Source: Amphiscolops sp. MND2022
Taxonomy: Eukaryota
Direction: 5' to 3'
Assembly (NCBI GenBank): GCA_964187785.1
Contig: OZ076409.1
Span: 9,860,001-9,924,000 of the forward strand
Length of the DNA: 64,000 nucleotides
Shown here: piece after piece, positions 153 to 58,321 of the stretch
Position numbering within the stretch: the stretch's first letter is position 1
Layout of the letters: the number at the start of each line of letters is the position of its first letter
The notes under the pieces: model-generated
What the model was told of the DNA's origin: nothing
The model's input: only the letters and a program-made list of their open reading frames with translations
Database searches by the model: none
Program-made: the position numbers and the translations under genes

Positions 153-605
153 GTTTGTCACCAGACCATACAGTACCATCAACCGAGTGCAACCGCATTC
201 ATTTTAGCTGACAAAACATACAAAATTTGTCTTGTTTTTATTGTTTCTTACCAGACAACAATGTAAACATTGCAAAATCCCTACAAGTTCATAGCATTAT
301 TTGACTTCTGAGCGTCTAAGTTTCATCATCACCTTCTAGGTGTTTAACGTTTGTTGTTTCAAAACCATTACCAAAGCTTCGTTCTTCAGTTAGTTATTAC
401 TTATAATCCAAGATGGACATTATTAAAGAACCCATAACCAACTATTACCAAATTGGTGCTGAAATCGGAATGTGAGTTGCTTATCGAATTTCATTGAATT
501 TTTTTAAAAAAATTTCAAGTTTCAAAATTTTAGTCGTTTTCATGGAACTTTACTCCCATTTCCCTGCTTTCGTTTGAACCAGTCTAAAACCTAACTAAGA
601 ACGTC

Positions 606-1314
606 CCGGGTCGACCCTCCATGGATATCTTAGTAAGATCTTGGCAAGATCTTGGAAAAATCTTAGCTAAGATCTTGCCAAGATATTGGCAAGGATTGCA
701 AGATGTCATGGTAAGATCTTATCAAGAGAGCCATGTTTCCAAGAAAACTTTTATTGTAAAATCCTATTTGGAAAGAAAAAATCTGAAAGGAACTCAACAA
801 AAATCAACATTTCTGCAGATTTATATTGTTAGACATTAAAACTTCTGTTAGCAATGTATAAAATTTGTTTGAAGAGATATTTATTTAGGAAGGCTGGTTA
901 AATTGTTCTTTCAATTGCAAAACTGTCGCCAACAACGGCGTCAGAAAAGCCTTCAGCTGAATCATTACCCAAATTTCGGAACCCAGAATACGTTATCGAA
1001 ATTTTTCATGCATTTTTGCATGCAAAAGTTTTTCAGCAGGTTTAAGCATTTTGATTATGAAAACGAGTAGAAATAGTCGTTGTTGGGTGAAATGAGCCTT
1101 TAGATTGAGTCTCGGCTTGTACCGAAGGTATAGTGTTTTTTTATAAGCTTAAAATTTTGTCCATCGTTATAAGATACGATCTTGGAATAAGTATTATCTT
1201 AGTAAGATTTTAATAAAAATCTTTCCATGGGATCCATGGCTGCCAAGATGTAGTAAGAATTTGGCAAGATCTTGCCAAGACAGCCTAGATGCTAGTAAGA
1301 GGGTCAAACCGGGG
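606..1314. mobile_element. Non-autonomous TIR element with internal CTTGGCAAG/CTTGCCAAG repeats
   Basis: Left end cccgggtcgaccctc and right end gagggtcaaaccgggg are imperfect inverted repeats; 'agatcttggcaag' motifs recur near both ends. Confidence 0.6.
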
Positions 1315-14688: not shown

Positions 14689-14889
14689 AGGCAGATTTGC
14701 CAAAGTGCGTGAGCTGATCCGGCTGGTGGACGGCCAGAAGTTCGCTGGCAAGTTCCAGGGCAAGAGAAGGGCTGCCAAACACATTGACCAAGAAGTCCAG
14801 GTGTACCAGCTGTGTTCCTCTCACCCCAGATTCCCTGCCGTTCACGGGGTGTACGAGAGCGGCAATGAAATCGTCATAGTCCTCGACTA
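14689..14889 (+). CDS. STK17: DRAK/STK17-like (DAPK-family) kinase, coding exon A (Gly loop, catalytic Lys, alphaC)
   Basis: Acceptor ttccag. Encodes (R)GRFAKVRELIRLVDGQKFAGKF...DQEVQVY...HGVYESGNEIVIVLD(Y). Donor GTTAGT at 14890; phase 2/2. Confidence 0.9.
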
Positions 14890-20086: not shown

Positions 20087-20261
20087 TGCGTTCGGGGGAG
20101 AAATTTACCCCTACTGCGTGGGCACTGACCCCGAGAATCCAGACGATGAGAACAGCGAAGGTCTCGTCTTCACAGAAGATGACGTCATCAAATACATGAC
20201 ACAACTGCTGCAAGCCGTGCAATTTTTACACAAAAACAATATTCTTCACCTCGACCTCAAA
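20087..20261 (+). CDS. STK17: DRAK/STK17-like kinase, exon B
   Basis: Acceptor ttctag. Encodes (Y)AFGGEIYPYCVGTDPENPDDENSEGLVFTEDDVIKYMTQLLQAVQFLHKNNILHLDLK. Donor GTTAGT at 20262; phase matches exon A. Missed by the ORF track. Confidence 0.93.
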
Positions 20262-20672
20262 GTTAGTTGACCTCGACCCCAAAGTTAGTTGACCTCGACC
20301 TCAAAGTTAGTTGACCTCGACCTCAAAGTTAGTTGACCTCGACCTCAAAGTTAGTTGACCTCGACCTCAAAGTTGGTTGACCTCGACCTCAAAGTTAGTT
20401 GACCTCGACCCCAAAGTTAGTTGACCTTGACCTCGACCTCAAAGTTAGTTGACCTCGACCTCAAAGTTAGTTGACCTCGACCTCAAAGTTAGTTGACCTC
20501 GACCCCAAAGTTAGTTGACCTCGACCCCAAAGTTAGTTGACCTCGACCTCAAAGTTAGTTGACCTCGACCTCAAAGTTAGTTGACCTCGACCTCAAAGTT
20601 AGTTGACCTCGACCCCAAAGTTAGCTGACCTCGACCTCAAGGTTTGTTGACCTCGACCTCAAAGTTAGTCAC
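20249..20672 (+). repeat. 22-bp minisatellite (CCTCGACCTCAAAGTTAGTTGA, 19 copies) made from the exon B/intron junction
   Basis: Counted directly: 8 units, a 6-bp ccttga insert, then 11 units. Variants include cccc, ttgg, gctga and ggtttg. Confidence 0.95.
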
Positions 20673-20999
20673 TTCAACCTCGAAACAAAGTTTTGTCATG
20701 TAATGAATTTATTTCTATTTAATTCCAGAAATGGAAAATTGCTGTGTAATTCTACAAGATTTATCCCCGGGACCTTACTGAAATTTTTAAGTTTTATAAA
20801 AAATTACCCTGCATGCAGGCCTGCAGCATGTAAAAGGTTCCAAAAGTCTCAACTAGTGTAATATGTAAGAATGCATTTTATAAATAAGTTCTGATATTCA
20901 TCTTGTTCTTTTGAGGAATTCCTACTGCAACTTTTCAAAATTCAAGTCTTTTTATATTTATAGTATTCCAATGAAACGTGATGTATTGTAAGGTTTGAT

Positions 21000-24689: not shown

Positions 24690-25720
24690 CCGCAATTTGT
24701 TTTCTAATGGTTTCCTTTTTACTACAGTTCTGCATTATGTTGAACGAAAAAGTCCTTTTCGGCCCCAGCGGGTTGTCGGTTTCTACTGTTGTACAATTTT
24801 CTTCGGGGAATATTTTTGTGGTATCTCATTACGTAGTTGTTTGAAAAGCGACTTGACAAGCTCTTCCATGTAAAGTTCAAAAATTGTCAGCACTTTATTC
24901 TCTAAAAATAAGTTCGCAATTGATTCAAATCGTTTTTAAAAAAAAACCGGAAAAGTCTTCGCTGTGCGTTTTCAATTTTGTTTTCAATTTCGTTTTAGCT
25001 GCTGAGCCATACACTAAAATACCGTAGGAAATGATTGACCTGGCAAACGAATTATATAACATGAGACAACTTTTTACGGATACAAGTCTCTTACACAGTA
25101 AATTAAACCACAAAATTTATTTCTTCACAACGTAGTTGATGTGTTCCCTGAACTTGAGACATCCATCTAGATGTAGACCTAAGTAATTACATGCAGATTT
25201 GTAACATAGTTCTTCATTTAAAATAGTTATTTTTTCTGGCAATCCGCAGCCAAGTGATATTGCTTCAAATTTACGTATATTTAATAACTGTCAGTTTACT
25301 AGCTGTGAACCAATCAGTGATTCTATGGAGATCTTCATTGATTTTCCGGTCAGTATTTTTTCCTGACTTTTTAATAGGTGTGTCATCTGCGAACATTACT
25401 ATTTGGCTGTCCTTCACAACTAGATCATTGAAGTAGAGGAGGAGAAGGAATGGGCCTAGTACACATCCCTGGGAACGCCAGTTTTAGCACAGAGCTTATT
25501 GGAATGATTTCCGTTATCACAAACAAAATGATACCGGTCACTGATATTCTTCCGGAGTATTTCTAAAATCGTTCTAAAGCAAGCTTGTCCTTTATTCTTT
25601 ACCTCAATAAATTCTCATGAATTCTGTCACAGAGTTAATAGCGTCAATGTATAATGCTTTTGTAGACCTAATGATGTTTTCAAAACGATCCGTATTTCAG
25701 TATAACGTTTTTCTAAAAAC
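24690..25720 (-). mobile_element. Decayed CR1/L2-like LINE RT fragment
   Basis: Minus strand gives GVP-QGCVLGPFLLLLYFNDL, IVMFADDT, YLGLHLDG and LYNSFARSIISYGILVYGSA, with frameshifts. Confidence 0.8.
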
Positions 25721-28996: not shown

Positions 28997-30720
28997 CAGG
29001 TTTGTCTTTGAAAATACACTACCGAAAATACATCACGGAAGCTATTGACAGTTCATGCGTTTGAACGAACACCTGATTGTCAACGGTTTAAGTGATCAAT
29101 GGTCACTCAAAAATTGGCAACTCAAGTTCGAAAAGTTTCATTAATTTTTCCGATGTATTCAGTTTTATCGTTTGCTATACGCTAAGTAAAACTTTGTAGA
29201 AAGCACCCAGTAAAGAAAAGGTTTCCCTCTTTCGTTCTATAAGCGAAACAAAAGTTCGATTTTGAACTACTTTATGAACTAGATTTTGCACTTGAGCGAG
29301 CTACTTCAGCTAATTTGTTTGAGCTGAGAAAAGCCTGACCTAAAAGTTTTCTAATCTTCCTGAATTACATAAATGAAAAGATACTTGACTACAAAAAACG
29401 GAAATATCATAATAGCAATATTAAATTCAAGTTGATCGATTAACCAAGTACATTAGAGCATTTTATCGGATTAAAAACGAAATCAACACGTGAATTTCGA
29501 TCTATTTCGCAATAAATTAGAGATTGGCCAAGTTGAATAAAACTATTACAAAGAACCTTTGATTCAGTTTGAAGCTGCTATAAAAAACTTTCGAAATTTG
29601 CCTGCTTTAATAAGTTTCTAGATCACTCGGGAGATCCGATCATTCTCGTTTGATGTATTCTTGTCAAGTTTTGGGTAACTTGCAAAGTATACAGAAGATA
29701 TACCAACGGGCTGTTTTCATGAATTTTACTATATCTTTTGAATAGAATAAGCTTCTATTAAATTATAATTTTGTTATGATCTGCGGAGAATAAGTTTGGC
29801 GACGTTGAATGACGTTGAATCTTTTGAGAAATCGTGTCGGGTTTCACACTGGTTTAAACGAGTGACGTTTCTCGTTCCTATGCAGAAAAGTCTTCAAGTA
29901 AAAACTCTTCTTTTGAAATGTAAAAATTTAGGATTCTGCTCAAATTTATTTCCTGACGGTGTTTCCTATCATATACCCATAGAAAGGGCATTTCGGTGGA
30001 AGGCGGGCAACTACAAGTCCGGTCAAATCACTTTTTTTTGGTCCCTCGAATGCTTTTGGAGAACCTAGCTCGAGTGATTATAACAAATTCGAGAGTTTTT
30101 AGAGTTCAAACCAGTGGCCTCCGTTTGATTGGAACTGAAATAGCCAACTTCACAAGATTTTGATCCAATACATCTTTTTTGGAAACTTGAGAATGCACGG
30201 ACCATGCTTCTTACCCCCAACACGAAAAAAAACTTTTATGCTTAAAAAATTTCTCGAGCGAATGAAAAAATTATAAGTTTATATAAATACTCAGAGGATT
30301 TCGATGTTTGCAGCAAAAAATTATCAGGAATTTTTGATATACTTTTCTAATAAAAAAAGCAAAATTTACCTCTCGAACAAGCTAAAATTGTAACCGTAAC
30401 GCAAATATCTATTCTAACGCAAATATTCTCCCCCATGAATAATAATGGGGGTAATGAGAAACATGGTCCGAACGCACTTTTAAATTTGAACCTGCATTCG
30501 ACGTGCATTGTTGTGGATGCTAGGTGTACAAGAGGAATCAGTGATGTCTTACAAGATTTTTATTCATCTTGCAAGATTTTGCATGGTCTTGCAAGATTCT
30601 TACAAGATTCATGCAAGACCGGCATCGGCTTGCCAGAAACTTGCATGTTTCTAACATGTTTTGTAAGAAACTTGCAAGATAAGTGTTCCAGACTAAGGTA
30701 AGTATGGAGATGTGTTTCAG

Positions 30721-30847
30721 CCGCAAAATATTCTGCTGTCTGCGCCTTGCCCCGAAGGAGACATCATTCTGGTCGACTTCGGACTCAGTCGTGCTCTGGA
30801 TGCATCCAGTGACCAGAGGGTCTTCGCCGGAACTCCGGATTATCTTG
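30721..30847 (+). CDS. STK17: DRAK/STK17-like kinase, exon C (PQN, DFG, activation loop)
   Basis: Acceptor tttcag. Encodes PQNILLSAPCPEGDIILVDFGLSRALDASSDQRVFAGTPDYL(A). Donor GTTAGT at 30848. HLDLK-PQNILL is typical of DRAKs. Confidence 0.93.
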
Positions 30848-34951: not shown

Positions 34952-35430
34952 CAGGGCTGTCATATTTTACTGTTAAAAACGATTTTTACAATTTAACATG
35001 TAAATTACGAATTTTCACATGTAAAATAGTAAAAAATGTGTTAAAATCATTTGTAGATCAATATCGTGCTGCTTTGATTTTGACGATGCCATGTGCAACG
35101 TCGTTTGTCTTAATGTTTTCGGGGCCGAAGGTCCCGCATTATCATTTTCAGATTCTGTCGCACCCTTACAATCTTTTTCAATGTGTTTTTCCATCCTTGC
35201 TGCATTATTGACAAATTCCAGCCCACAGTTTTTGCATTTTGCACGCTTGTTAGTTCCCGACAAAATTTCTTTGAAGTAGGACCACACTGGTTTCTTCTCT
35301 CGAGGCATCTCAAAATCTGAAAAACGCTGAAATCTCTGTTATCTGTTAAAAACATGTTAAAAATAGGGTGTAAATAACATGTAAAAAAAGGTCGTGTTAT
35401 AAACACATCGTTATTAACATGACAGCCTTG
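34952..35430 (-). mobile_element. Internally deleted hAT transposon retaining a BED zinc-finger ORF
   Basis: TIRs cagggctgtcat / atgacagccttg. Perfect 8-bp TSD TTTACATC at 34944-34951 and 35431-35438. ORF 35308-35015 reads MPREKKPVWSYF...AKCKNCG...RMEKHIEKDC. Confidence 0.9.
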
Positions 35431-37228: not shown

Positions 37229-37277
37229 CCCCCGAATTGGTAAACTACGACCCCATAAGTTCAGCTACCGACGTTTG
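37229..37277 (+). CDS. STK17: DRAK/STK17-like kinase, exon D (APE)
   Basis: Acceptor tttcag. Encodes (A)PELVNYDPISSATDV(W). Donor GTTAGT at 37278; phases 1/2 fit the neighbouring exons. Confidence 0.92.
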
Positions 37278-37754: not shown

Positions 37755-37934
37755 GAGCCTGGGAGTCGTTTGTTACGTAATGTTGACTGGCCAAAGTCCC
37801 TTTGCGGGAGAAACTGCTCAGAAAACGTCAAACAACATTTGCAACGTGGATTATGAGTTCCCAGAAGACTTGTTCAGCGGAATCTCGGAACATGCACAGA
37901 CGTTTATTTCTTCAATTTTCAAACGCAACCCAAA
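37755..37934 (+). CDS. STK17: DRAK/STK17-like kinase, exon E
   Basis: Acceptor tttcag. Encodes (W)SLGVVCYVMLTGQSPFAGETAQKTSNNICNVDYEFPEDLFSGISEHAQTFISSIFKRNP(K). Donor GTTAGT at 37935. Confidence 0.93.
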
Positions 37935-40384: not shown

Positions 40385-40678
40385 ACACAGAGCCACAATT
40401 GAAGAGTGCCTACAACACCCCTGGATCTGCCGTAACTCTTCCTCCTCCCCCTCCTCCTCTGAGAAGAAAAGTGGGAAGAACATGTTGCAAGTGGAAGTGG
40501 TGTCAACCTCGCCTGACAGGGAGCACGTGTTTTGGGTCAACGAGGATGACCCCGATCATGACCCCAACGACGCCTCCAGGAGTGCTAGCTGCAGTCCCTC
40601 CACGTGCTCCGAAAGTTCAGAAAACTACTCGTCTCCTCTACAGACATCCAGAGCTCCGGGCTCCACCGCAATTACCAG
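40385..40678 (+). CDS. STK17: DRAK/STK17-like kinase, exon F (end of kinase domain and Ser-rich tail)
   Basis: Acceptor ttttag. Encodes (K)HRATIEECLQHPWICRNSSSSPSSSEKK...PGSTAIT(R). Donor GTCAGT at 40679. Confidence 0.85.
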
Positions 40679-42241: not shown

Positions 42242-43168
42242 AAGCATTAAAACAGCATAGAAATCATTTCATTTTCAATACTTCTTGTTGGGTTTTGAAA
42301 TTTAAATCAATGTGCTTTTGTAGGGTGACTTTGTCGATGTTCCAATGCATTATTGGTACAGTCGTTGGACAGAATAGTTGTCCCGTTCCGAAAAAAAACT
42401 TAGATCGCATCAGATGAACTTGTTCAATTTTTTACTGTATTTCCACGAAAGTCGTGAACCAACATTAAGCAGATTTCAGTTACCGGTGTGAAAAACATTT
42501 CTTTTTCAGCTTGTCCGCTTTGCAACAACAGAAACTCATTTCGGGATAAAAATGGATTGATTTCATCACCAAGAATTATTGCTTTAAAAATGAAAGTTAT
42601 CAACAGAAAGCAAGAAAATTGCCATTCGTCTCTTTACACAATAATTCGAAAAAAGTACGCATCGCTAAAATTCTGGGCATATGAAAGGGCATATCCGGTA
42701 CCGAAATATTTACGAGCGAAAATTGTTTGAATTGAGTTTTGTCGAGGTTAATTTATTCTACTTTTTAAATTTTTAAATTGCTGCAAATTCTTTAAAGTTG
42801 CTGCAAATAAGTAAGTAAGGAAGTAAGTAAGTAAGTACAAAAACACTGAATTCCATAATTTTGTGATAAAAATTATCATGAAAGATGGCAGTGGGGATTA
42901 TCAAAATGGTCAAAACGGGACAACTATTCTCTCCAATGTCTCAGGGTTGGCAAAAATGGAAAAAGTCATAAAAAACATTCACGAAAAACATGCTTCGATC
43001 ACGTCTTGGCGTGAACAAAGCACGAAAATTATAATTTTTATTTAAACAACTAAATAAATAAAGATTTGGAAGAAAAATTGAAAAAAAACAATTTTCCGAA
43101 AAAAACATGTATTTTGGGAAAACATTATTCCTGCAATGACTGAAGTGTTTTTTTTTAACCCTTTTCAG

Positions 43169-43478
43169 GACTGGAGTGTACCATCGTCTATGCCAGTCGG
43201 AAGAACACAGTAGCAGCTCGGACTCGGCTGCTTTTCTGAGCGACGATGACGTCACTACTCTGAAGCGAGCAGCCGACTTGGCTTCGACTTCGCTGCCCAT
43301 ACCATCGTCGCCACCCTGCCCGCCCCAAAAGTTCAAAAGTTCATCGACCTCCGGTGCCAGAAAATCCCTTTCCAAGGAGTCCTCTTCACCTGGGAAGCTG
43401 TCGGACTTCCGTCGTCTGTCTCTGAAAAGGAAGCCCAAAAACGAAACGACCCCGTGCAAAGTGATGAACATACGGTAG
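43169..43478 (+). CDS. STK17: DRAK/STK17-like kinase, terminal exon G (Ser-rich, basic tail)
   Basis: Strong acceptor ttttttaacccttttcag; phase 2 matches exon F. Encodes (R)TGVYHRLCQSEEHSSSSDS...FRRLSLKRKPKNETTPCKVMNIR*. Confidence 0.8.
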
Positions 43479-49651: not shown

Positions 49652-49997
49652 ATGCATTTTTTGTTTACCCATGTAATTTTTGCCCTCTGGATATACAAAG
49701 GCTACAGAAGTACAGCCGAAGCAACTCCAAAAACATTCCGCTGTTCACCGTTTGAAGAGATTGAAAAAGGTAAAAGTTTGAACTCCTCTTTTATTTTGCC
49801 CAGTACTAGTGTTATGCAGTCGGAAAGCAAATGTGCTCTACTCTGCAACAAAAATGACAGATGGTTGTCATTCGGGTTTTGTGGGGGTGGAACTTGCAAA
49901 CTTTACAGCGTGGACATTCACTCCACAGAGCAGGGGGAAAAGATTCTTCAAAAAGAAGGAAATTGCGACTATTTTGGAATGAAGAAGGAAGCTAAAC
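49652..49997 (+). pseudogene. Secreted PAN/apple + C-type lectin gene, 5' half (interrupted by a transposon)
   Basis: Signal-peptide-like MHFLFTHVIFALW and PAN-like SESKCALLCNKNDRWLSFGFCGGGTCKLY. The frame runs into a transposon TIR at 49998. Confidence 0.7.
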
Positions 49998-52900
49998 CAG
50001 GGGTGTAGATTGAAAAACATCACTCGATTTTTTTTTAAAAAAATGACAATACAAAAAAATGTGTTTTTGTTTCAAAAATAGGCAATTCGGTTTTCTAACC
50101 ACATTTAAAAGACAAGGATATTATTGCTTTATAACAAGCACTTGAAAATCTCTTGAAAAACTTGAAACAATATATGCTTGCAGCAGGTCTAAAATTGTGA
50201 GGTGACACGTTAGGGTTGTCTGAACTTTTTTACTGGTAGTTCAAAAAATGAATAATTGATTGAATTTATTGTCAAAAAAATGAATAATTGATAAAAAGGT
50301 TGGAACTGCTAAAAGGTTAAAAAATGATATTTAACACGTGTTTTGCTTCGTACAAATTTCGAGCAGCTATTTATAACGATCATTTTTCAAGGCACAGATG
50401 ATCATACTAGGATCATCATGTTTTATTGTATGAACCTAGTAGGATCCATCATGGTTCATAGTATAATTAAAGTCTTAGACACCTAATAAACTGTAGGTTA
50501 AAATTGACATGTCAGACAAGACAAATTCCTGTAAACAAAGTTCTCAAATAGAAACCCCGATAAGACGGATGATGGAATCTAATACATGCGCTACTTTGAT
50601 TAAGCGCTTCAGAGAAATTCTAAAATTCAGTCCCAAATTTCAGAAACCTCTAGCTATCGTAAGGTAACGCCGTGCCGAAACGCGACCTCAATGGTTTCAG
50701 TGTCCTTAGGGCAACCTTTGAAAGTTGACCACTTGGATGCTAATAACGATGCTGCAACAATCTATTTCGAACGCATTTCCGAGAAAGCTGTCAAAAGAAC
50801 ATCGAATTTTTTTATAAGTTTCTAATGTCTTTCTCTCGCTCGACCTCGCTTAGAAAGACGTCCGCTGGTGACCGCGAGGCACTAAAAAAGGTTGGGACGA
50901 CTAGGAAAATCATAATCTGTGTTGCGTTTTTTCCCAAATTCTGCCAAATCTCCACGATGGAGTGGAGGGGAACTTCACTTGACTATTTTTGTTACTTGAC
51001 CATTTCAGTTACTTGGTAGCACAGTTGGAAGTGCGTCTGCCTGGCCCACACGAGTTCGTGGTGTAACGTCAGGCAGTCGATGTTACAAAATTTCGATGAA
51101 AAATTCGAAATGTGCGGTATCAAATAAGCACATTCAAGATGGCCGACCCGGCAGGTACCAAAATTGTAGAAGAACCAAAAAAACGTACAAACAGACCACC
51201 CCGTAGTCCCCGACACCCGAAGGCACCCGAAGAGGCTGAAAAGAGAGCGAAACCCAGTCGAGTGCCATATCATCCAGGAAAATGTCGGAAGAGACCCTCC
51301 AGAATCAAGGTGGAACCTGTCAGTGGATCTTTGCAAGAACTCCGGAACCTTCTTGAAGATGCCCGAGGAACTCTTAGTGGTTAATTTTATTGTTATTATT
51401 GTTTTTGGCAGATTTGTGATGAAATTGGATCTAGCAGATCCCAATTTTACTGATTTTAGATCTAAATCTGCAAATATAATGTACTTTTGCTGGACACCTT
51501 TTTTGGACCTCGGAAGGATGTAGGAATTCGCACGAGTACGTAAGGAACCTAGGAATCGTTTTTACAGGCTTGTGGGGGGCGCGTCCGGAGCTCTAATCTG
51601 AAGAGTCACCTTAGACGTAGGAAAAGTACCCCTAGGAGACCATTTTGGGAGAAAAACTGATGTTTAGGGCTGTAGTAAGACAACGGTCTCCTGTTTAAGC
51701 ACCCTAGGCATTGTACCACTTGCTAGGTGTGCGCCATTAGCAGGACGTTACATCTGAAAAAGTTTTTATAGCGACCACAGAGGGATATTTTTCACTTTAG
51801 CGTCCGACTAGAAGTTTTTCCGGCTTTCCGGCCCTGCTAGTTCCGGATCTGGGAAATTGTTCTACTTGGTTCCAGATTGTTTTGTTGTCCCAAAAGTTCT
51901 TTTGTTGAGCTTGGCAGTACGAAAAATTACTGCCAATACGGTTTTCAGCATCCCCCATATATATTGAAACTTTACCGACGCTTTTAATTTGTTACAAATA
52001 GACCTGTGTGAAAGACCTCCTAAATATGAGCTGTTTTGAAACAAAACTAATAATTAAAAGATCTCCAACCCCCTGAAGAAAGTTGTTACACCTCCCTACA
52101 CTTCTGTTGAAACCATCCGGAAAGTCTGAGAACAAAGAAACTGAAAATTTTTGGTACTGTTCCGAATGTGTAAATAGTGCAATCTGAAAATTTTTTGAGA
52201 GATTTTATTTGGAACCTACCAGGTTTTGCTTGCCTCTTTTCTGTTAATATTGAATGTAACGTTGCAAACGCAGAAAACCGCGAGTGATTTTGATCAGTGG
52301 TTGCCGAGATATAGTCAAAAACGTGCTATTTTTGCAAAATTTCGGGAATTCGGCAACCACGTTTTTTGGACAAGTCGAAATTTCTCATAGCAGGAGTAGC
52401 TAAAAACGGATTGCACCAACGTGTAGAGCGCAAAAAGTTACGCTTGTGGCGTGATTTTAGTGGCGCTACTGTTAATACTCGTGGAAAAATCTTAGCCACA
52501 GTTTTGCTCTGAAAGTGTACAAAGTTGCTGAAAAAACCGAATTTTAGTTGAGCACAATGCGGTATCTCCGCGGTATCCCAGCACCTAAATACTTGCGTTT
52601 TCGCATACGTGGTACTAAATTCCAACGATTTGTGCAATTTGAGCAGCCGGAGGCACCTTGCGTTGTCGCTTTGTTATTCTGTTACGTGGGCATAAGTTAT
52701 GCTCGCACATCAGATTTCAGGTAGCTAGGAAGCCTAGAAGGCCAATTTGACCACTTGTTGCAATTTGTACAACATAGTAAATTTTTCAAGAAACTATGCC
52801 AAATGACAGCATTCCACATAGGGTCAATTTTGGTGCAATTGGAGGTTATTTCCCTTCGATTTGGCTACTGTAGTATGCGGTGTGAAATTTGCAGGTCGCT

Positions 52901-55900: not shown

Positions 55901-56001
55901 CCGGGCGATAGATGACATGGTCGAAATTTTTGTCTTGATTCAAAATGCTGACAACAAACTAAGTTACTGTGAATATTCACTGTTTTCAATTCACACTCCT
56001 G
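49998..56001 (-). mobile_element. ~6-kb composite decayed hAT-like element inserted in the lectin CDS
   Basis: TIRs caggggtgtagattgaaaaaca / tgttttcaattcacactcctg. Weak transposase-like remnants on the minus strand near 50500-50600 and 55400-55700. TSD not conserved. Confidence 0.7.
51062..55083 (+). mobile_element. Non-autonomous LTR retroelement (LTRs 51062-51752 and 54518-55083)
   Basis: Two direct repeats, each TGTAACGTC...GACGTTACA. PBS-like tagcgacca after the 5' LTR; tcgaggacga...gagga before the 3' LTR; TGG on both flanks. No gag/pol recognised. Confidence 0.85.
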
Positions 56002-56009
56002 CTATGTAA

Positions 56010-56596
56010 CAGTCTGCCAAGAAGAGGGCAGATTCGTAGATATTCAGAGTGACGAGCGCAGTGAGCACTGCGCTGTAAACGGGAAACGAGTGGATCGAGA
56101 ATGGGGACCATGGGTGAATGGACAAAGAATAGACGAATCGCTTCAATGGAAGGTCACGAAAGTCCGAAAACAAATAATAGGCACAGCTCATGGAGGCGTT
56201 GAAGGAAATAACCAATCAGAGAAAGTCGTTTCGTGGATCAAGTTCGTCAACCAATCAATGACGTGGGATGAATGTAAAACACACTGCGAAGCTTTAGGTG
56301 GTATCTTATTTTGGATAGTTGACGGAACTATAGGGCAATTGGAGTTTTTGCTTGGAAAAATGGAACAGAAATCTTTCTGGTTGGGAATTTACACTGAAGA
56401 TCACGCAGTCTGGAAGTCAGTGACAGGAGAAATAATGGGAGAAGAGCTTTTGTTTTGGCTCAGTGGCCAGCCTAATAATTATAAAGGGAATCAATACCAC
56501 GTTGTTGTGGATCCACCATTGCCAGGAACATCCAGCTTTGGATTGGGTGACTATACTAAAACCGGCAGAAGGAGATGTCTTTGTGATATGCTGTGA
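56010..56596 (+). pseudogene. PAN/apple + C-type lectin gene, 3' half (CTL domain)
   Basis: Encodes VCQEEG...VDREWGPW...MTWDECKTHCEALGGIL...FWLGIY...WLSGQPNN...RRCLCDML*. AATAAA at 56653. Joins the 5' half in frame as ...EAK-P-VCQ. Confidence 0.8.
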
Positions 56597-57204: not shown

Positions 57205-58321
57205 CCCTGGTTGAAAGAAAATGCGTTCCTTGCAAGGATCTTGCAAGATCCTTGTAAAAATGCAATTACTTGTAAGATCTTGCAAGGAAATTTGTTCCTT
57301 GCAAGATCTTGCAAGGAAATTTTTTCCTTGCAAGATCTTGCAAGGAAATTTTTTCCTTGCAAGATCTTGCAAGGAAATTTGTTTCTTGCAAGATCTTGCA
57401 AGGTAATTTTTTCCTTGCAAGATTTTTCAGAAATGTTGATAACTTGCATGATTTTCCAAAAAAAAACACGAAACCATGGAAGTGTAAAGAACAAAAAACA
57501 AAAATTCTAAATTGTCAAAGTTTCAAACTTTTGTTCTCGTGCGTGTCACTTTCCAGAAAACAAGAAATACAAGCCAAATGGGTACAAACTACGGTCTAAG
57601 GAATAAGATCGAAACGCACTTCTGTAACTAAGATCTAAAGAACTACGATCTAAATGTCATTTTTCGTAACTAAGATCTAGAGAATGCCAGCTCCTGAAAA
57701 TCCAAAACTATGAACAGATATAAAGTATAAAATGTGTCTCGGATATGTCGACAGATCCGAATTGTTTTCATTAATTTTACACATTTTCTCTGATTCTACA
57801 TTTCTTCTGTTCTGAGACCCGCAGGAGGCCACGTTCTTGTCGTGGGTCTCGTCAAGTGCGATACTATGTATCTCACGAGCTGAGTGCCTCCCTAAAAATA
57901 CAGCATAAGGACTTCGGCAAGCAATTACTGTGAACTCTGTTGACAGGTAGCTGCCATTTCCGACATTCTTACTATATTTTTTATACATGGTTATACTGTG
58001 ATCTTAGTATCGTAAGTATGTTTTGACAACCCAATTAATTTTCCAATGAATTTTTTTCCTTGCCAGAATCTTTCAAGGAAACACTATTCCTTGCAAGAAT
58101 CTTCCAACGAATTTTTTTTCCTTGCAAGAATCTTTCAAGGAAACAGTATTCCTTGCAAGAATCTTTCAAGGAAATAGTATTCCTTGCAAGAATCTTACAA
58201 GGAAATTTATTCCTTGCAAGATTCTTGCAAGATGTCTTGCAGAAAAATGCATTATCTTGCAAGACCTTGAAAGAAAATCTTGCAAGATCCTTGCAAGGAA
58301 CGCACTTTTTTTCAAACAGGG
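57205..58321. mobile_element. Foldback-type element with long modular inverted arms and TA flanks
   Basis: ccctggttgaaagaaaatgcgttccttgcaaggatcttgcaagat matches the reverse complement of the right end. ~30-bp CTTGCAAG-containing tandem units in both arms; TA on both sides. Confidence 0.85.

Follow-up and report, generated by a model that had tools for sequence, protein, structure and literature searches.

In a kinase gene of Amphiscolops sp. MND2022, the 5' splice site at the end of the exon that encodes the catalytic loop (exon B) stands at the head of a 22-bp minisatellite and is followed by 18 further copies of itself, each with an intact GT. With the first of these donors the reading frame stays open, with every other it ends at one and the same premature stop, and the junction found in an orthologous sequence is that of the first donor. 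We consider that the array is probably a tolerated product of slippage at which the first donor is preferred. The window referred to below is the whole stretch of 64,000 nt that was analysed, and positions are counted from its first letter.

Anatomy of the donor array

A search of the window with TRF placed a 22-bp minisatellite of 18.9 copies (93% matches, score 727) over 422 bp at the 3' end of exon B (Table 1). The window is rich in tandem repeats, with 34 TRF rows in 64 kb, and the array has the highest score among them. A 20-nt pattern of the unit, allowed up to three mismatches, gave 19 matches in the window, every one of them inside the array, and none of 100 shuffled versions of the window reached 19 matches (mean 0.00). 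A dispersed element was rejected on the same count. The shuffles, the TRF result and the 19 GT donors established that the tandem 5' splice-site array proposed in the original prediction is real. The array starts 13-14 nt inside the 3' end of exon B, and its unit consists, as had been predicted, of the final 13 nt of the exon together with the start of the intron, the latter amounting to 9 nt.

The donors follow one another at 22 nt throughout, except for one 28-bp step after unit 8 (20416 to 20444), where the unit is a 22-bp unit with one extra 6-mer resembling the repeats at the end of exon B. The predicted series of donor ends at 20261+22n consequently holds up to unit 8 and fails beyond it because of this step. 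The GT was kept in 18 of 18 downstream copies, most of which had been described as intact donors with the same exonic context. The donors were found as described, but the upstream context that donor 1 has in common with its copies does not exceed 14 nt and shrinks to 4 nt in the five units (2, 8, 12, 13 and 17) that share a T>C variant at -5. Identity to donor 1 is complete from -3 to +6 in 15 of the 18 copies and from -13 to +9 in 10 of them. Units 6, 17 and 18 each have a single change within the donor or next to it, and unit 19 has a different tail. The predicted number of 19 units is correct for those with a GT donor, but a degenerate 20th unit lacking an intact donor lies at the 3' edge. 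It matches the 28-bp unit in 17 of 23 columns, and its local score of 25 was reached by none of 320 intron 31-mers (mean 12.6, maximum 23) in a background test picked after the flank had been seen.

Table 1. Positions of the kinase gene, its donor array and neighbouring sequences in the window
Feature	Positions	Strand	Remarks
Acceptor-like TTCAG	385..412	+	23 nt before the ATG
First coding exon	413..471	+	ATG at 413; donor GTGAGT at 472; tblastn to P0001 residues 1-19, 100% identity
Exon A	14689..14889	+	P-loop end and catalytic Lys; donor GTTAGT; Pkinase 10-78; tblastn 92.5%
Exon B	20087..20261	+	175 nt; ends with the HLDLK catalytic loop; Pkinase 90-125, E 3.4e-8; 98% to P0001
Minisatellite array	20248..20669	+	22-bp unit
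Donor 1	20262..20267	+	sole array donor keeping the frame open
In-frame TGA	20268..20270	+	included in the mRNA on use of any downstream donor
GT of donors 1-8	20262, 20284, 20306, 20328, 20350, 20372, 20394, 20416		
GT of donors 9-14	20444, 20466, 20488, 20510, 20532, 20554		
GT of donors 15-19	20576, 20598, 20620, 20642, 20664		
Degenerate 20th unit	~20671..20692	+	
Reverse-transcriptase fragment	25274..25483	-	B-C intron; RVT_1 E 4e-4, below cut-off
Near-consensus donor	30696..30705	+	GT at 30698; B-C intron
Exon C	30721..30847	+	PQNILL...DFG; acceptor TTTCAG; donor GTTAGT; Pkinase 126-164
BED zinc-finger remnant	35018..35338	-	C-D intron; zf-BED E 3e-4, above Pfam cut-off
Exon D	37229..37277	+	APE...DVW; donor GTTAGT
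Exon E	37755..37934	+	Pkinase 182-249; donor GTTAGT, its -3 to +6 nine-mer the same as in the array donors
Exon F	40385..40678	+	end of the kinase domain and start of the Ser-rich tail; donor GTCAGT
(TAAG)7.5 microsatellite	42808..42837	+	F-G intron
Exon G	43169..43478	+	last coding exon; stop codon
PAN-domain ORF	49652..50008	+	E 0.002, below cut-off
C-type lectin ORF	55973..56596	+	E 1.6e-6
Dispersed minisatellites with a common core	627..693, 30547..30618, 57268..57459, 58037..58297		units of 11, 20, 29 and 31 bp

The host gene

Eight coding exons with canonical AG/GT borders join into an open frame of 464 codons, and four of six exon candidates match consecutive parts of Pfam Pkinase. The intron between exons B and C, which carries the array, is 10,459 nt long and ends at the acceptor before 30721, where the original prediction had correctly placed it. 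The sole close relative found was a cluster of two sequences, P0001/P0005 (457 aa), carried by Logan contigs of 1,896 and 1,826 bp; these contigs are probably transcript assemblies, since the full coding sequence lies on a short contig. The protein encoded in the window and P0001 are identical in 410 of 464 aligned columns (88%). Both P0001 and P0005 read HLDLK-PQNILL across the exon B/C junction with no insertion, which is the junction made by donor 1. P0001 thereby confirms the exon map, and it comes from a relative that may lack the array.

On sequence comparison the gene is an STK17/DRAK-like member of the DAPK family. Exon B found its best PDB matches in STK17B and STK17A, and P0001 matched the solved structures of STK17A (E 1.5e-74) and STK17B (3.9e-74) ahead of DAPK3 (1e-58); its named database matches were STK17A or STK17A-like proteins at 46-49% identity, and Pfam returned kinase-type families only. 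For exon E alone, DAPK3/2/1 ranked above STK17B. The catalytic kinase motifs are intact and the domain as a whole is closest to STK17A/B, but in comparison with STK17A/STK17B (DRAK1/DRAK2) exon B of the host gene carries a short acidic insert, and the kinase domain is followed by a long Ser-rich tail. Differences between the window protein and P0001 are concentrated in this tail (44 of 186 columns, against 10 of 278 in the kinase part; Fisher p 5e-11). The far smaller change in the kinase part points to purifying selection on the gene, a signal that may predate a young array. A pseudogene was rejected in view of the open frame and the conserved kinase domain.

Some further observations were made on the gene model. 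Exon F has two acceptors 6 nt apart (40385 and 40391, +), both in frame, and P0001 fits the upstream one. The acceptor-like TTCAG ahead of the ATG raises the possibility that an upstream non-coding exon or a trans-splice site lies outside the window. A window-encoded model of the kinase was absent from both protein searches, while that of the neighbouring lectin was returned; the kinase gene may lack an annotation in the source record or be split there.

Consequences of donor choice

The outcome of splicing to exon C was followed for each donor of the array. Donor 1 gives the 464 codons of the full frame, and each of donors 2-19 gives 147 codons and a stop at codon 148, located 663-1043 nt before the last exon junction. 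Reading on past donor 1 yields K-V-S-stop, as had been predicted, and the accompanying claim that use of any downstream copy truncates the kinase was likewise borne out for all 18; a later copy as the real donor was rejected for that reason. Skipping of exon B offers no rescue, leading to a stop after 133 codons. Under the exon-junction rule of 50-55 nt, which may not hold in this organism, mRNAs with such stops would be NMD substrates.

The original prediction had also raised a decoy or U1-binding block with NMD-coupled dosage control, a suggestion for which the properties of the donors gave no support. GTTAGT is the donor in five of the seven introns of the gene and was thus rejected as an unusual donor. 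Scored against a generic donor consensus, the array donors are weak (6 of 11 matches), which is the ordinary type of this gene. A stop within 9 intron nt on read-through is met at four of the seven donors. With GTTAGT ordinary and early read-through stops this common, neither feature points to design.

Masking of the copies by RNA structure was rejected, the whole region folding with a z of -0.78 and the mean unpaired probability of donor 1 (0.70) being like that of the copies (0.35-0.76). What sets donor 1 apart is its position, as the first, and its context, of which the copies carry no more than 14 upstream nt. We also rejected recursive splicing and the gain of an intron within the array: the three array AGs examined have 1-2 T in the 12 nt upstream, against 5-7 at the seven real acceptors, and AG|GT occurs in unit 18 only.

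Two other donor-like sequences were noted in introns of the gene. The near-consensus donor at 30698 belongs to the intron of the array, 23 nt short of the exon C acceptor; its 10-mer is the sole exact match in the window, and 10 of 100 shuffles also gave one. It is probably a chance occurrence, as an intron of the remaining 23 nt would seem too short. Four GTAAGT motifs arise in the (TAAG)7.5 microsatellite, which lies some 330 nt upstream of the exon G acceptor and away from any junction.

Origin and turnover of the array

The last codons of exon B (H-L-D-L) form a near-perfect 6-bp tandem. We infer that a segment spanning the border of exon B and its intron was duplicated early on, with a now decayed copy surviving at the 3' edge, and was then amplified and homogenised into 19 units by slippage or unequal exchange. 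The array bears the marks of turnover: five units have a variant in common, one has gained 6 bp, and the unit at the boundary has decayed. The same marks of minisatellite turnover are described for the mirages of amphioxus (PMC3087553).

Within 1.5 kb, no duplicate was found of any of the 13 remaining junctions of the gene. In a rough, post hoc estimate, the chance that any of the 20 TRF arrays of the gene starts over any of its seven donors is about 0.055, falling to about 0.005 if only arrays of at least 5 copies and a period of at least 10 are counted. Across a repeat-rich genome, arrays that start at donors would be expected. The array gives no indication that the spare donors are under selection: the GT was never lost, and four of five substitution events fall in the nine donor positions of the 22 (p 0.09).

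A metagenome scan with exon B gave 389 pattern matches and 11 confirmed loci, all 11 of them distant kinases (44-61% identity) and none an orthologue. At none of these 11 loci do the 30 nt that follow the matching codon contain repeated donors. In five of them (L004, L006, L007, L009 and L010) the catalytic-loop Lys codon is immediately followed by a GT, apparently the start of a short intron at the same phase-0 position as the exon B junction.

Comparison with known reiterated donors

The closest match in arrangement is the 37-bp VNTR in intron 7 of human F7, where mutagenesis shows that, of the functional donors, the one farthest upstream is used exclusively (Borensztajn et al. 2006, PMC1557585). 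There, as in our array, the first unit spans the exon/intron border, and pseudo-donors of identical sequence lie behind the authentic donor. The two differ in that the upstream F7 donor was shown by experiment to be productive, and here the use of donor 1 is inferred; in the unit, which in F7 measures 37 bp, occurs 5-9 times and includes 4 exon nt, as against 22 bp, 19 donors and 13 exon nt here; and in the outcome, since all downstream donors of our array cause the same stop and two of those in F7 do not (PMC1557585). In LMNB2 and PDGF, reiterated donors are also present and only the authentic one is used (PMC1557585). The genes 6-16 and CBS, with short units and 15-26 reiterated donors, come closest to the array in copy number, but both use two extra donors in mRNA (PMC1557585); alleles of the 31-bp VNTR in CBS intron 13 have 16-21 units (PMC2630376).

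Among invertebrates, the amphioxus mirages of Adh3 and globin genes are likewise minisatellite-like duplications of exon/intron borders, unstable in length and apparently harmless to splicing (PMC3087553). Units of the Adh3 mirage measure 10-72 bp and boundary units, as here, stand outside homogenisation; mirages recur in several amphioxus loci (PMC3087553), whereas only one of 14 junctions of the present gene is duplicated. Four features of this class were found in the array: the first unit crosses a real exon/intron border, set by the open frame and P0001; the donor sequence is repeated in the downstream units, as in the F7 IVS7 type and the mirages; the authentic donor is the most upstream one, as judged by the full frame with donor 1 only and by the identical junction of P0001 and P0005; and the boundary unit has diverged while the inner units are homogenised.

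A different rule was derived from duplicated globin donors, among which the downstream one wins when the two are at least 45 nt apart (PMC3413131). Donors 4-19 of our array lie 66-402 nt from donor 1. Here the two rules make opposite predictions, upstream-first according to F7 (PMC1557585) and downstream-wins according to the globin donors (PMC3413131). The array thus offers a clean test case, in which identical weak donors are set out in 22-nt steps to 402 nt and every wrong choice destroys the protein. It adds one more natural example of reiterated 5' splice sites, extending the human and amphioxus pattern to another animal kinase gene. In narrow literature searches, no title among the matches listed concerned a repeat in STK17/DRAK genes, and no paper was found that combined a donor VNTR, NMD and copy number.

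Interpretation of the array

Among the readings offered in the original prediction, neutral slippage together with first-donor choice fits best, but a first-donor rule is not new, being already known from F7 intron 7. On this reading an ordinary intronic minisatellite would have nucleated by chance where exon B meets its intron in a functional STK17/DRAK kinase gene. By analogy with the published systems, the spliceosome would commit to donor 1, which is the earliest to be transcribed and alone has a whole exon in front of it. The copies would then be competent but mostly silent spares, and any leak to donors 2-19 would produce a 147-residue stub and an NMD-type mRNA, tolerated as waste.

A leak could have larger effects if a share of transcripts passed through donor 2, 3 or later into NMD and the kinase level fell with copy number. 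Such a leaky dosage allele, which would be a side effect as in human CBS and not an evolved switch, is the main rival reading but unlikely. In its favour are the identity of most copies to donor 1 across the donor itself, the distance of every resulting stop from the last junction, the lack of any structure masking the copies, the use of two extra donors in 6-16 and CBS (PMC1557585), a title cited in PMC1557585 that links the CBS VNTR to lower activity, and the distance rule favouring downstream donors (PMC3413131). Against it stand the strong conservation of the kinase domain and the behaviour of F7, whose identical pseudo-sites stayed silent even when strengthened (PMC1557585). It is improbable that the copy number of the array sets DRAK kinase dosage through NMD in the manner of a rheostat. 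In that case each additional 22-bp unit would divert more pre-mRNA to NMD, since all downstream donors end in one premature stop. A hypermutable repeat would then serve as a quantitative NMD-coupled regulator in an invertebrate, and the locus would pit upstream-first scanning against the downstream-wins rule in a natural setting, over spacings of 22-402 nt. The array would take on this larger importance only if both a leak and an effect of copy number on the kinase level were shown.

It is very improbable that the array is a selected regulatory element, whether a U1 decoy block or a poison-donor switch, retained because it tunes DRAK in particular conditions. The GT retained in 18 of 18 copies, the NMD type of all alternative products and the low post hoc chance for long arrays would agree with selection, but near-identical units are expected of a young or homogenised array without it, the changes lean towards the donor positions and not away from them, and early read-through stops are usual in this gene. 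An assembly artefact or a mis-resolved copy number is also very improbable, given that the array is only 422 bp long, contains interspersed recurrent variants and a decayed boundary copy, and lies between unique flanks in a gene that continues correctly to exon C.

Other features of the window

Downstream of the kinase gene, the window holds a PAN-domain ORF and a C-type lectin ORF, which possibly belong to one gene; in the lectin protein search the window's own protein was the only match (one among 16 candidates). Remnants of mobile elements lie in two introns of the kinase gene, the reverse-transcriptase fragment in the B-C intron and the BED zinc-finger remnant in the C-D intron, the latter probably a fragment of a DNA transposon. 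With the PAN and lectin ORFs they mark the genome as that of an animal. The dispersed minisatellites of four unit lengths share one common core, and one copy of them ends about 100 nt before the exon C acceptor.
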